This document shows, one piece after another, positions 9,726-34,107 of a stretch of DNA of 64,000 nucleotides (position 1 is the first letter of the stretch; every line of letters starts with the position of its first letter). The notes beneath the pieces were generated by a model, which saw nothing but the letters and a program-made list of their open reading frames with translations, had not been told where the DNA came from and searched no databases. The stretch is from NCBI RefSeq assembly GCF_050920415.1, contig NZ_CP169309.1. One strand, written 5' to 3'. Both the position numbers and the translations under genes were made by a program. Source of the stretch: Escherichia coli (lineage in GTDB: Bacteria; Pseudomonadota; Gammaproteobacteria; Enterobacterales; Enterobacteriaceae).

Positions 9726-11795
9726 ATGTCTGAGAAAACTTTTCTGGTGGAAATCGGCACTGAAGAGCTGCCACCAAAAGCACTGCGCAGCCTGGCTGAG
9801 TCCTTTGCTGCGAACTTTACTGCGGAGCTGGATAACGCTGGCCTCGCACACGGCACCGTTCAATGGTTTGCTGCTCCGCGTCGTCTGGCGCTGAAAGTAG
9901 CTAACCTGGCGGAAGCGCAACCGGATCGTGAAATCGAAAAACGCGGCCCGGCAATTGCTCAGGCGTTCGACGCTGAAGGCAAACCGAGCAAAGCGGCAGA
10001 AGGCTGGGCGCGTGGTTGCGGTATTACCGTTGACCAGGCTGAGCGTCTGACTACCGATAAAGGCGAATGGCTGCTGTATCGCGCCCACGTGAAGGGCGAA
10101 AGCACTGAAGCACTGTTGCCGAATATGGTTGCGACTTCGCTGGCGAAACTGCCGATCCCGAAACTGATGCGTTGGGGTGCAAGCGACGTGCACTTCGTGC
10201 GTCCGGTGCACACCGTGACCCTGCTGCTGGGCGACAAAGTTATTCCGGCTACCATTCTGGGCATTCAGTCCGATCGCGTGATTCGCGGCCACCGCTTTAT
10301 GGGCGAGCCGGAATTCACTATCGACAATGCTGATCAGTATCCGGAAATTCTGCGTGAGCGCGGGAAAGTCATCGCCGATTACGAAGAACGTAAGGCGAAG
10401 ATTAAAGCCGATGCCGAAGAAGCGGCGCGTAAGATTGGCGGTAACGCTGACTTAAGCGAAAGCCTGTTGGAAGAAGTCGCTTCGCTGGTGGAATGGCCGG
10501 TTGTGCTGACCGCAAAATTCGAAGAGAAATTCCTCGCGGTGCCGTCTGAAGCACTGGTTTACACCATGAAAGGTGACCAGAAATACTTCCCGGTGTATGC
10601 GAACGACGGCAAACTGCTGCCGAACTTTATCTTCGTTGCCAATATCGAATCGCAAGATCCGCAGCAAATTATCTCTGGTAACGAGAAAGTCGTTCGTCCA
10701 CGTCTGGCGGATGCCGAGTTCTTCTTCAACACCGACCGTAAAAAACGTCTGGAAGATAACCTGCCGCGCCTGCAAACCGTGTTGTTCCAGCAACAGCTGG
10801 GTACACTGCGCGACAAAACTGACCGCATCCAGGCGCTGGCTGGCTGGATTGCTGAACAGATTGGCGCTGACGTTAACCACGCAACCCGTGCGGGCCTGCT
10901 GTCCAAGTGCGACCTGATGACCAACATGGTCTTCGAGTTCACCGACACCCAGGGCGTTATGGGGATGCACTACGCGCGTCACGATGGTGAAGCGGAAGAT
11001 GTCGCAGTGGCGCTGAACGAGCAGTATCAGCCGCGTTTTGCTGGTGATGACCTGCCGTCTAACCCAGTGGCTTGTGCGCTGGCTATTGCTGACAAGATGG
11101 ATACCCTGGCGGGTATCTTCGGTATCGGCCAGCATCCGAAAGGCGACAAAGACCCGTTTGCGTTGCGTCGTGCCGCGCTGGGCGTGCTGCGCATTATCGT
11201 TGAGAAGAACCTCAACCTCGATCTGCAAACACTGACTGAAGAAGCGGCGCGTCTGTACGGTGATAAGCTGACTAACGCCAACGTGGTTGATGACGTTATC
11301 GACTTTATGCTCGGTCGCTTCCGCGCCTGGTATCAGGACGAAGGTTACACCGTTGACACCATCCAGGCGGTACTGGCGCGTCGTCCGACTCGTCCGGCTG
11401 ATTTCGATGCCCGAATGAAAGCGGTATCGCACTTCCGAACCCTGGATGCGGCGGCAGCACTGGCGGCGGCGAATAAGCGTGTATCTAACATTCTGGCGAA
11501 ATCTGACGAAGTGCTGAGCGACCGCGTGAATGCCTCTACTCTGAAAGAGCCGGAAGAAATTAAACTGGCGATGCAGGTTGTGGTGCTACGTGACAAGCTA
11601 GAGCCGTACTTTGCTGAAGGTCGTTACCAGGATGCGCTGGTCGAACTGGCTGAGCTGCGTGAACCGGTTGATGCCTTCTTCGATAAAGTGATGGTCATGG
11701 TTGATGACAAAGAATTGCGAATCAACCGTCTTACCATGCTGGAGAAACTGCGCGAATTATTCCTGCGAGTTGCGGATATTTCGCTGTTGCAGTAA
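9726..11795 (+). CDS. glyS: glycine--tRNA ligase beta subunit
   Basis: 689-aa ORF starting [20 protein letters not shown], 9 bp downstream of glyQ. Confidence 0.97.
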
Positions 11796-11811
11796 TAACG
11801 TCGTTATTAAA

Positions 11812-11838
11812 AAGCCTGCCATCTGGCAGGCTTTTTTA
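11812..11838 (+). terminator. rho-independent terminator of glyQS
   Basis: GCCTGCC-ATCT-GGCAGGC hairpin followed by a TTTTTT run directly after the glyS stop. Confidence 0.7.
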
Positions 11839-12004
11839 TCGCTAAATAATAGAGCAACCTTTAATAATCTTCTGCTGAATAAAGATTGTCTCATATATTA
11901 ATTTTATGAGATTTTTTAGGATTATATCAAAGAGAAGAAAAGAACTTATTAAGCTAGAATAGCCACAGGTGCTTGAGACTGTTTGTCTCAGGTATTCACC
12001 GAAA

Positions 12005-12065
12005 GGCAGACAGAGAAAAGCCCCACCTGACTATAAATCAAAGTGAGGCCCCTCTATGCATAGAC
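12005..12065 (-). ncRNA. sokA: putative SokA antisense RNA of the hokA type I toxin-antitoxin locus
   Basis: Minus-strand candidate promoter (TTGATT, 17-bp spacer, TAACCT) reading antisense across the upstream in-frame ATG of the hokA ORF, followed by an imperfect hairpin plus U-run; ends inferred, not measured. Confidence 0.3.
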
Positions 12066-12115
12066 ACCATAAGGTTAGCCTCTTACTCGTTGGAAATCAA
12101 CACAGGAGGCTGGGA

Positions 12116-12268
12116 ATGCCGCAGAAATATAGATTACTTTCTTTAATAGTGATTTGTTTCACGCTTTTATTTTTCACCTGGATGATAAGAGATTCACTGT
12201 GTGAATTGCATATTAAACAGGAGAATTATGAGCTGGCGGCGTTTTTAGCCTGCAAATTGAAAGAGTAA
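12116..12268 (+). CDS. hokA: Hok-family small toxic membrane peptide HokA
   Basis: 50-aa ORF MPQKYRLLSLIVICFTLLFFTWMIRDSLCELHIKQENYELAAFLACKLKE preceded by Shine-Dalgarno AGGAGG; Hok family signature. Confidence 0.85.
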   Translation: MPQKYRLLSLIVICFTLLFFTWMIRDSLCELHIKQENYELAAFLACKLKE

Positions 12269-12275
12269 GAGTCTT

Positions 12276-12302
12276 CGGCGGGAAGTTATTCCCGCCTTTC
12301 TT
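12276..12302 (+). terminator. rho-independent terminator downstream of hokA
   Basis: GGCGGGAA-GTTA-TTCCCGCC hairpin followed by TTTCTT. Confidence 0.6.
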
Positions 12303-12456
12303 ACGGCGTTGCGCATTCTCATTGCACCCAAATTTATTCTTCACAAAAATAATAATAGATTTTATTACGCGAACGATTATTTATTTCCTGAATAAACAAA
12401 TAAAAAAATCCCCGCCATTTGGCAGGGATCTTAGATTCTGTGCTTTTAAGCAGAGA

Positions 12457-12669
12457 TTACAGGCTGGTTACGTTACCAGCTGCCGGGCCTTTAGCGCCGC
12501 TTTCGATGGTGAAGGACACTTTCTGACCTTCGTCCAGAGATTTGTAACCATCGTTCTGGATAGCAGAGAAGTGTACGAACACGTCTTTAGAACCATCGTC
12601 AGGAGTGATGAAGCCGAAGCCTTTGTCAGCGTTGAACCATTTTACGATACCAGTCATTTTACCGGACAT
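12457..12669 (-). CDS. cspA: major cold-shock protein CspA
   Basis: 70-aa [73 protein letters not shown]; cold-shock domain with RNP motifs. Confidence 0.97.
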
Positions 12670-32585: not shown

Positions 32586-32654
32586 GGAGAGAGAAAACCC
32601 CCGCACGTTGCAGATATTCACCTGACAACATCACGGGGGCTAATCTTGAACCTA
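32586..32654 (-). ncRNA. rdlD: Rdl antisense RNA, copy 1 (approximate ends)
   Basis: Minus-strand reading gives a GC-stem hairpin (CCCCCG...CGGGGG) followed by UUUUCUCUC; -10-like TATTCT upstream on minus strand; ends inferred from the Rdl family. Confidence 0.45.
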
Positions 32655-32705
32655 GACCACTCAAGAATAGCCGCGAAACGTTGTCATTACAACACAGGCG
32701 GCTAT

Positions 32706-32813
32706 ATGACGCTCGCAGAACTGGGCATGGCCTTCTGGCATGATTTAGCGGCTCCGGTCATTGCTGGCATTCTTGCCAGTCTGATCGTGAACTGGCTGAA
32801 CAAGCGGAAGTAA
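32706..32813 (+). CDS. ldrD: Ldr type I toxin peptide, copy 1 (35 aa)
   Basis: MTLAELGMAFWHDLAAPVIAGILASLIVNWLNKRK; Ldr family small hydrophobic toxin. Confidence 0.85.
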   Translation: MTLAELGMAFWHDLAAPVIAGILASLIVNWLNKRK

Positions 32814-33071
32814 CGTGTCAGACGGGCGTCAGGCTGCCGTAATGGCAATTTGCGCCCGGACCAGGCCGCAGGGATAAAACTCTGCGGCCTTTTTCGTAAG
32901 AAAAATGCAACGGTTGCAAGCGGATAATATTCTGCGGAATGCGCAGCACAGAGTGAAGAAGTGATGGATTCTGGAACAGAAAAACAGTCGTAGAATCAGC
33001 GGCAAGCCGGAAGGGTTCCGGTGAGGCGCAATGTTGCGGGGGCTTTATCCCTGGTGGCATTGGTTGCTGGA

Positions 33072-33140
33072 GAGAGAAAACCCCCGCACGTTGCAGGTAT
33101 GCACCTGACAACATCACGGGGGCCATTCTTGCATCCAAAC
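33072..33140 (-). ncRNA. rdlD: Rdl antisense RNA, copy 2 (approximate ends)
   Basis: Same structure as copy 1; minus-strand promoter-like TTGTAA, 17-bp spacer, TATTCT. Confidence 0.45.
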
Positions 33141-33188
33141 AATACAAGAATAGCCGCGAAACGTTGTCATTACAACAGAGGCGGCTAT

Positions 33189-33296
33189 ATGACGCTCGCA
33201 GAACTGGGCATGGCCTTCTGGCATGATTTAGCGGCTCCGGTCATTGCTGGCATTCTTGCCAGTCTGATCGTGAACTGGCTGAACAAGCGGAAGTAA
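33189..33296 (+). CDS. ldrD: Ldr type I toxin peptide, copy 2 (35 aa)
   Basis: MTLAELGMAFWHDLAAPVIAGILASLIVNWLNKRK. Confidence 0.85.
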   Translation: MTLAELGMAFWHDLAAPVIAGILASLIVNWLNKRK

Positions 33297-33555
33297 CGTG
33301 TCAGACGGGCGTCAGGCTGCCGTAATGGCAATTTGCGCCCGGACCAGGCCGCAGGGATAAAACTCTGCGGCCTTTTTCGTAAGAAAAATGCAACGGTTGC
33401 AAGCGGATAATATTCTGCGGAATGCGCAGCACAGAGTGAAGAAGTGATGGATTTCGACGAACAAAAATGGCCGTAGAATCAGCGGCAAGCCGGAAGGGTT
33501 CCGGTGAGGCGCAATGTTGCGGGGGGCTTTATCCCTGGTGGCATTGGTTGCTGGA

Positions 33556-33624
33556 GAGAGAAAACCCCCGCACGTTGCAGGTATGCACCTGACAACACCA
33601 CGGGGGCCATTCTTGCATCTAGAC
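33556..33624 (-). ncRNA. rdlD: Rdl antisense RNA, copy 3 (approximate ends)
   Basis: Same structure as copies 1-2. Confidence 0.45.
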
Positions 33625-33672
33625 CATTCAAGAATAGCCGCGAAACGTTGTCATTACAACAGAGGCGGCTAT

Positions 33673-33780
33673 ATGACGCTCGCAGAGCTGGGCATGGCCT
33701 TCTGGCATGATTTAGCGGCTCCGGTCATTGCTGGCATTCTTGCCAGCATGATCGTGAACTGGCTGAACAAGCGGAAGTAA
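33673..33780 (+). CDS. ldrD: Ldr type I toxin peptide, copy 3 (35 aa)
   Basis: MTLAELGMAFWHDLAAPVIAGILASMIVNWLNKRK (L26M relative to copies 1-2). Confidence 0.85.
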   Translation: MTLAELGMAFWHDLAAPVIAGILASMIVNWLNKRK

Positions 33781-34038
33781 CGTGTCAGACGGGCGTCAGG
33801 CTGCCGTAATGGCAATTTGCGCCCGGATCAGGCCGCAGGGATAAAACTCTGCGGCCTTTTTCGTAAGAAAAATGCAACGGTTGCAAGCGGATAATATTCT
33901 GCGGAATGCGCAGCACAGAGTGAAGAAGTGACGGATTCCGGAACAGAAAAACAGTCGTAGAATTAGCGGCAAGCCGGAAGGGTTCCGGTGAGGCGCAATG
34001 TTGCGGGGGCTTTATCCCTGGTGGCATTGGTTGCTGGA

Positions 34039-34107
34039 GAGAGAAAACCCCCGCACGTTGCAGGTATGCACCTGACAACATCACGGGGGCTAATCTTGAA
34101 CCCAAAC
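34039..34107 (-). ncRNA. rdlD: Rdl antisense RNA, copy 4 (approximate ends)
   Basis: Same structure as copies 1-3. Confidence 0.45.

Follow-up and report, generated by a model that had tools for sequence, protein, structure and literature searches.

The reading frame at 12056–12268 (+) of the window, a stretch of 64,000 nucleotides of Escherichia coli DNA, is very probably mokA, which forms the leader frame of a type I toxin–antitoxin locus, hokA/mokA/sokA, that is chromosomal and intact in this IS150-free strain. Translation of mokA is thought to switch on HokA, a small membrane toxin, and mokA of hokA/mokA/sokA is an already known member of the hok/mok/sok family. In the ORF list, the frame has an ATG start and 70 codons plus a stop, with 20 leader codons in frame with the 50-codon hokA. 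Its 70-residue translation, MHRHHKVSLLLVGNQHRRLG followed by MPQKYRLLSLIVICFTLLFFTWMIRDSLCELHIKQENYELAAFLACKLKE, is identical to the one given in an earlier note on this DNA, so that the in-frame upstream ATG and 70-residue product described there are confirmed. The suggestion in the same note that the extension may be a Mok-like leader is likewise upheld, as the frame is homologous by position to R1 mok, is preceded by a Shine–Dalgarno (SD) sequence of its own, overlaps the predicted target of SokA, and carries the annotation b4647 in K-12.

Searches of the 70-residue product against protein families identified the Hok/Gef-type toxin ORF of about 50 residues that characterizes the family. HOK_GEF (Pfam PF01848) matches residues 25–66 with an E value of 1.9e-21, and the NCBIfam HokA equivalog (NF007290) matches residues 21–70 over all 50 model positions, at 128 bits against a cutoff of 89. 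The gene is found between glyS (9726–11795, +) and cspA (12457–12669, −), the known site of hokA. The comparison with annotated mokA/hokA loci that had been proposed as a check was informative, because the K-12 record (NC_000913.3) lists the same frame as mokA. This pseudogene (b4647, 3720448..3720632) has its 3′ end, and hence its stop, in common with hokA (3720448..3720600) and is therefore in the same reading frame as ORF 12056–12268; the window frame thus agrees with b4647 both in locus (glyS–hokA–cspA) and in frame, as expected of an orthologue. K-12 mokA is cut on its 5′ side by IS150, whereas the window contains no IS150, and the locus, with mokA, is therefore intact. A RefSeq E. coli genome with 100% identity over 11796–12456 carries a PGAP annotation of the 50-codon hokA only. 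Automated pipelines give hokA alone, other gene callers give a 70-residue “HokA,” and the curated K-12 record has the overlapping mokA. The window holds the locus without the interruption seen in K-12, and such a strain could be used for testing mok-dependent translation of chromosomal Hok. The naming of the downstream neighbor also varies among genome records: WP_000014594.1 (12457–12669, −) is named CspE in some RefSeq genomes and CspA in another, and is cspA in K-12; the Rfam cspA thermoregulator matches this locus at 493 bits.

The start signals of the frame were compared across the hokA clade and with more distant hok loci. When 13 hokA-clade mRNAs (E. coli, Pseudocitrobacter, Klebsiella, Kluyvera, Citrobacter, and one further enterobacterium) are aligned, neither GAGG at 12045–12048 nor ATG 12056 varies among them. 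ATG 12056 aligns with the mok ATG of the R1-type plasmid hok locus, and a GAGGC motif at the mok SD is common to the window, R1, hokB, and hokC. A longer leader motif, GAGGC-N6-7-ATG...TAGCCTCTTA...GGAGG-N-ATG, is shared by the window locus with R1, hokB, and hokC and recurs throughout the surveyed loci. Judged by these sequence comparisons, the occurrence of ATG 12056 with an SD is more than chance. A structured 5′ leader that fits the family covariance model was also found, with Rfam RF01794 matching 11967–12118 (+) at 112.8 bits (gathering score 59) over the full model (1–157). This family, named “sok antitoxin,” is modeled in the sense of hok as far as the hok AUG and in practice describes the hok mRNA leader; the plus-strand match therefore marks the hok leader and not the direction of the sok gene. 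The frame further shows the general layout of mok: it has its own SD, starts at the expected distance upstream of hok (∼50–60 nt), and, being open through ATG 12116, continues across the ribosome-binding site (RBS) of hok. According to the earlier note, a canonical out-of-frame mok ORF would have spoken against an in-frame leader; none was found, and no other SD-bearing start codon reads through the hokA start. Two TTG codons were considered as starts of an out-of-frame mok and rejected. The one at 12090 gives 18 codons and has no SD, and the one at 11973, which gives 57 residues with no Pfam match, also has no SD and falls within the tac helix, 6 nt from the start of the predicted mRNA.

Coordinates of the elements assigned to the mokA/hokA/sokA locus, in window positions.
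Element	Position	Strand	Basis and remarks
Putative −10 box TAGAAT of the hokA/mokA mRNA promoter	11955..11960	+	Putative, read from sequence; 7 nt before start of Rfam match
mokA–hokA full-length mRNA (inferred)	11967..12335	+	5′ end by homology (start of Rfam match); 3′ end approximate
tac-like 5′ element	11968..11978	+	Pair tables of two MFE folds and RNAalifold consensus
ucb-like anti-SD box GCCCCAC	12020..12026	+	Pairs with mokA SD in full-length fold
mokA Shine–Dalgarno GAGG	12045..12048	+	7 nt before ATG 12056; sequence, invariant in alignment
mokA frame	12056..12268	+	ORF list; K-12 mokA b4647; conserved 70-codon frame in orthologues
Predicted SokA antisense RNA	12005..12066	−	Homology with R1 Sok layout; fold; ends approximate
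Predicted sokA promoter	12072..12100	−	−35 TTGATT 12100–12095, 17-nt spacer, −10 TAACCT 12077–12072; inside mokA codons 6–15
hokA Shine–Dalgarno AGGAGG	12104..12109	+	6 nt before ATG 12116; held in predicted long-range helix
hokA toxin gene, 50 codons plus stop	12116..12268	+	Annotation in 100%-identical RefSeq genome; NCBIfam HokA; HOK_GEF
GC-rich 3′ stem-loop	12277..12296	+	Terminator-like site in scan; compensatory changes at columns 318–319/326–327
fbi-like 3′ element TCTCATTGCACC	12317..12328	+	Complementary to 5′ tac element; MFE folds and consensus

Neither of the two promoters, that of hokA and that of sokA, was picked up by a consensus promoter scan; both are weak matches and were placed by homology. 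The putative hokA promoter has no good −35 box and, from its sequence, looks like a weak promoter. At the other end of the transcript, the GC-rich stem-loop is probably the protective hairpin that ends the processed, translatable mRNA; its counterpart in R1 stabilizes the truncated hok mRNA (PMC9841398). A 23-codon ORF at 12245–12316 (−) runs antisense to the 3′ end of hokA; it is ysaE in K-12 and a hypothetical protein in other genomes, and the version annotated in some E. coli genomes is shorter (60 nt).

To place the frame in its family, leaders were compared among 77 Hok-encoding loci from other species, a survey whose query was the HokA-clade alignment and which is thus biased to HokA-, HokE-, and Vibrionaceae-like relatives, HokA, HokB, HokC, and R1 Hok being too divergent for one joint query alignment. 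All 10 hokA orthologues, which represent six genera, have an ATG exactly 60 nt upstream, in frame, with 70 codons (the E. coli representative, two Pseudocitrobacter, Klebsiella oxytoca, K. michiganensis, three Kluyvera, Citrobacter sedlakii, and one further enterobacterium); one of the Kluyvera has a nonsense codon within hok itself. The same arrangement, with an ATG 60 nt upstream, in frame, and 70 codons, is seen in 6 of 7 further E. coli genomes (94.6–97% identity). In the seventh, strain 1002W03, a single nucleotide is deleted between the SD and ATG of hokA (window 12110–12116), leaving the mok ATG 59 nt upstream; its mokA is therefore not in frame and spans only 29 codons, like that of Phytobacter and UBA5654 relatives. 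An SD and ATG occupy the mok position in 34 distinct leaders; mok is in frame with hok in 15 of these (frame 0) and out of frame in 19 (+1 in 6, +2 in 13). In 32 of the 34, the mok frame runs without a stop to the hok SD or beyond; the other two frames read from the same place are open in 13 and 5. The frame is thus free, and what is retained is reading through to the hok RBS.

The window therefore does not share the R1 trait of a mok out of frame with hok, since a distance of 60 nt places the two in frame. The statement in the earlier note that plasmid mok is out of frame is right for R1, whose 70-codon mok begins 58 nt upstream and is read in the +1 frame. Its expectation that an in-frame extension would be atypical did not survive the survey, given that mokC/hokC and all 10 hokA orthologues are in frame and the family as a whole is split. 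On the evidence of these leaders, an out-of-frame mok is not a defining feature of the hok/mok/sok family, and the in-frame arrangement is the normal state of the hokA clade and hokC. What the survey adds is a modest point, that the frame of mok relative to hok drifts freely while openness to the hok RBS is kept; this drift fits the published conclusion for R1 that translation matters and the Mok peptide does not. Enterobacter and Lelliottia loci and most hokE-like loci contain an intact 50-codon hok with a GGAGG SD and no ATG at the mok position, often also with no GAGG SD; hok in such loci is either translated by another route or silent. Four hokA-like loci appear to have been inactivated: in Kluyvera genomosp. 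3, codon 19 of hok is a stop, and Escherichia sp. E1V33, Kluyvera sichuanensis, and Klebsiella spallanzanii have no hok start codon at the expected place.

Codon-level constraint was examined in 15 distinct hokA-clade sequences, with the 19 extension codons after the ATG compared with hokA (49 sites per codon position). Variable sites at codon positions 1, 2, and 3 number 6, 9, and 8 in the extension and 18, 15, and 38 (of 49 each) in hokA. The extension has a higher pooled pN/pS than hokA (0.61 versus 0.28), and its synonymous-site divergence (pS) is low, 0.20 versus 0.43. This pattern, as read from the alignment, is one of nucleotide-level and not protein-level constraint on the extension. 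The 20 extra codons show no third-position bias, so it is likely the act of translation that matters and not the peptide; translating the 20 codons, as opposed to their particular sequence or frame, appears to be under selection.

These data bear on two other explanations of the upstream ATG. In the first, ATG 12056 is the true toxin start, HokA has 70 residues, and the 50-residue annotation is mis-called. The 70-residue form is indeed a common gene-caller output (cluster P0001, 891 member sequences), occurs in Pseudocitrobacter and Klebsiella-like relatives, and corresponds to an open frame with an SD. We nevertheless consider this explanation highly improbable, because the NCBIfam HokA equivalog and HOK_GEF begin from Met21 onward, AGGAGG stands 6 nt before ATG 12116, and the 20 extra codons combine the lack of third-position bias with the higher pN/pS; moreover, the upstream ATG is out of frame (59 nt) with hok unharmed in 1002W03 and in the UBA5654 and Phytobacter relatives, and the leaders of R1 and HokB are out of frame as well. 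In the second, the upstream ATG is untranslated, the 60 nt are kept only as RNA (SokA target, sokA promoter, and helices), and the openness of the frame is incidental. The same 60 nt do contain the predicted promoter of sokA as well as several RNA helices, and the conservation of this segment could be due wholly to RNA structure and the embedded sokA promoter. The absence of codon-level constraint and the low pS, which signals nucleotide-level constraint, agree with such an explanation, and 20 stop-free codons are not rare by chance. Against it stand the invariance of the SD and ATG pair in the clade and the excess of open mok frames up to the hok SD over the two control frames, whichever frame mok occupies. 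In R1, mutations of the mok start codon or SD (GAGG) and premature stops before the hok start abolish Hok toxicity, whereas stops after the hok start leave it, the Mok product being irrelevant (PMC9841398). We therefore give the RNA-only explanation little credence and retain the assignment of the frame as a probably translated leader, mokA. Dependence of hok translation on mok translation, with Sok acting through mok, is known for R1 only (PMC9841398; PMC4147584).

Secondary structures were predicted for the mRNA and for the antisense RNA. The region 11967–12335, which is alignable across 13 orthologues, folds with a minimum free energy (MFE) of −135.2 kcal/mol (z = −7.2). In this full-length fold, 11968–11978 pairs with 12317–12328 (tac–fbi), the mokA SD (12043–12049) pairs with 12020–12026, and the mokA AUG pairs with 12313–12316. 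When the RNA is shortened to 12299, just past the GC hairpin, the 5′ end pairs with 12018–24 and the SD helix is weakened. The hokA SD and AUG (12105–12118) are paired with 12240–12253 in both folds. All helices are kept in the RNAalifold consensus of the 13 orthologues, in which tac–fbi corresponds to columns 3–13/353–364 and ucb versus mokA SD to columns 55–61/78–84, the latter consisting of pairs invariant in the 13 sequences. The tac/fbi pairing and release of the mok SD after 3′ shortening that are typical of the family are thus seen in silico, in MFE folds and consensus. In the hok-start helix, columns 151/279 and 141/289 show compensatory changes. The tac/fbi and SD/anti-SD pairs, for the most part, do not vary and so argue neither for nor against structure, which limits the support from covariation.

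For SokA, the layout of R1 Sok was referenced from an anti-Sok PNA sequence (PMC1635323). The predicted SokA has a 7-nt free 5′ tail complementary to mokA codons 1–4 followed by a hairpin (−25 kcal/mol, z = −3.7). The body of this RNA would cover the mokA SD, and the RNA as a whole would stop 38 nt short of the hokA SD. The predicted sokA promoter is located at the place equivalent to that of R1 (TTGCGC-17-TATCCT), and its −35 box and the TA...T of the −10 are invariant in the 13-sequence alignment. The remnant of sokA in K-12 (b4614), which lies beyond IS150, maps to window ∼12005–12042.

From the observed ORF, homology, conservation, and predicted folds, a model can be drawn by homology with plasmid R1 hok/mok/sok, every functional step of which we infer. 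The full-length mRNA (∼11967–12335) would be locked by 5′–3′ pairing of tac and fbi, with the mokA SD held by the upstream anti-SD box. Trimming of the 3′ end to the hairpin at 12277–12296 would allow tac to capture the anti-SD box, and the mokA SD and ATG would be freed. The hokA SD and ATG would stay buried in the conserved long-range helix, and ribosomes starting at ATG 12056 would have to run through this helix for hokA to be translated. SokA, transcribed from inside mokA codons 6–15, would pair with the mokA SD and start; because it stops 38 nt short of the hokA SD, it would silence hokA only indirectly, via mokA. At in-frame loci, such coupling could not be termination–reinitiation and would have to depend on ribosomes unfolding the region around the hokA start.

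Since mokA and hokA share a frame, the product of mokA would necessarily be HokA with 20 additional N-terminal residues. It is conceivable, if rather doubtful, that in-frame loci (the hokA clade, hokC, and some hokE-like loci) give two toxin proteoforms, of which the 70-residue form may itself insert in the membrane and either add to toxicity or tune it. The tail of the long form, with a charge of +4 and a His-rich N terminus, would be compatible with a cytoplasmic N terminus. Were the long form toxic, SokA would directly control a toxin and not only a leader.

The locus was compared with the closest known systems. E. coli K-12 mokA/hokA/sokA (b4647, b4455, b4614) has the same glyS–cspA site, the same hokA, and the same in-frame mokA, the difference being that the K-12 locus is broken by IS150 and the window version is uninterrupted. 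The intact mokA/hokA/sokA form of E. coli C was reportedly described by Pedersen and Gerdes in 1999 (Mol Microbiol 32:1090). The hokA/sokA pair of E. coli C has been cited as a working hok homologue pair (PMC3562002). K-12 mokC/hokC (gef; b0018/b4412) also has an in-frame leader with a common stop, 69 codons in length (19 extra plus the 50 of hokC), and its start context, GAGGC-N-ATG, is the same as that of mokA; it differs in the distance between the two ATGs (57 nt versus 60 nt in the window) and in chromosomal site, and HokC is 35% identical to HokA. The overlap of mokC with hokC is cited as complete, and mokC as enabling hokC expression (PMC8825762).

R1 mok/hok/sok (parB) resembles the window in its 70-codon leader ORF, in the GAGG SD at the homologous position, in the hok SD downstream, in the tac/ucb/fbi logic, and in a Sok complementary to the mok start region. 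It differs in that R1 mok, in its +1 frame, ends 4 nt before the hok stop, and the R1 Mok product is unrelated to Hok, whereas mokA is in frame and MokA contains all of HokA. R1 hok/sok is plasmid-borne, with proven killing of plasmid-free cells. K-12 mokB/hokB (b1420/b4428) is a chromosomal hok paralogue with annotated mok and sok, in which mokB is out of frame, starting 58 nt upstream, with 55 codons and a stop that differs from that of hokB.

Activity of the circuit is a separate matter. Chromosomal hokA of E. coli C reportedly mediates neither post-segregational killing nor rifampicin activation (bioRxiv 10.1101/2025.08.07.668861), and the circuit may therefore be poorly active. The region is uninterrupted in 2830 of 5425 complete E. 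coli genomes, with IS150 present there in about half (roughly 48% interrupted); taken with the missing mok ATG in many hok relatives, this suggests that mok function is often dispensable or lost. A locus that is a decaying relic, with mokA intact by descent and its regulatory role gone, would be in keeping with these observations and with the reported inactivity of chromosomal hokA, hokB, and hokC for killing (bioRxiv 10.1101/2025.08.07.668861). However, each of the elements that R1 would lead one to expect has an undamaged, if in part only predicted, counterpart in the window, hokA is under purifying selection (pN/pS 0.28), and the whole architecture is kept by orthologues in six genera, and we regard decay as unlikely and an intact mokA/hokA/sokA locus as the better description. 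Literature searches found no ribosome-profiling evidence for a strain with the intact locus.

The extent of the K-12 interruption was mapped onto the window. IS150 in K-12 is flanked by sequences corresponding to window ∼12043/12044 and 12084, with the sequence to its right aligning from 12084 at ∼98% identity, and ∼40 nt (12044–12083) are absent. Lost with this segment are the start signals of mokA (SD and ATG), its first nine codons, and the −10 box of sokA. In E. coli U1, by a simple insertion with duplication of an AAG target, IS150 follows position 12043 and so stands 2 nt before the mokA SD. The IS150 copy in K-12 and HS4 is opposite in orientation to that of U1, with ∼40 nt missing, indicating two ways of interruption.

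Elsewhere in the window, four tandem matches to the rdlD antitoxin RNA are found at 32592–34107 (−), with scores of 82–90 bits and a spacing of ∼483 nt, a pattern that indicates a four-copy ldr/rdl type I toxin–antitoxin array, as predicted from these matches.
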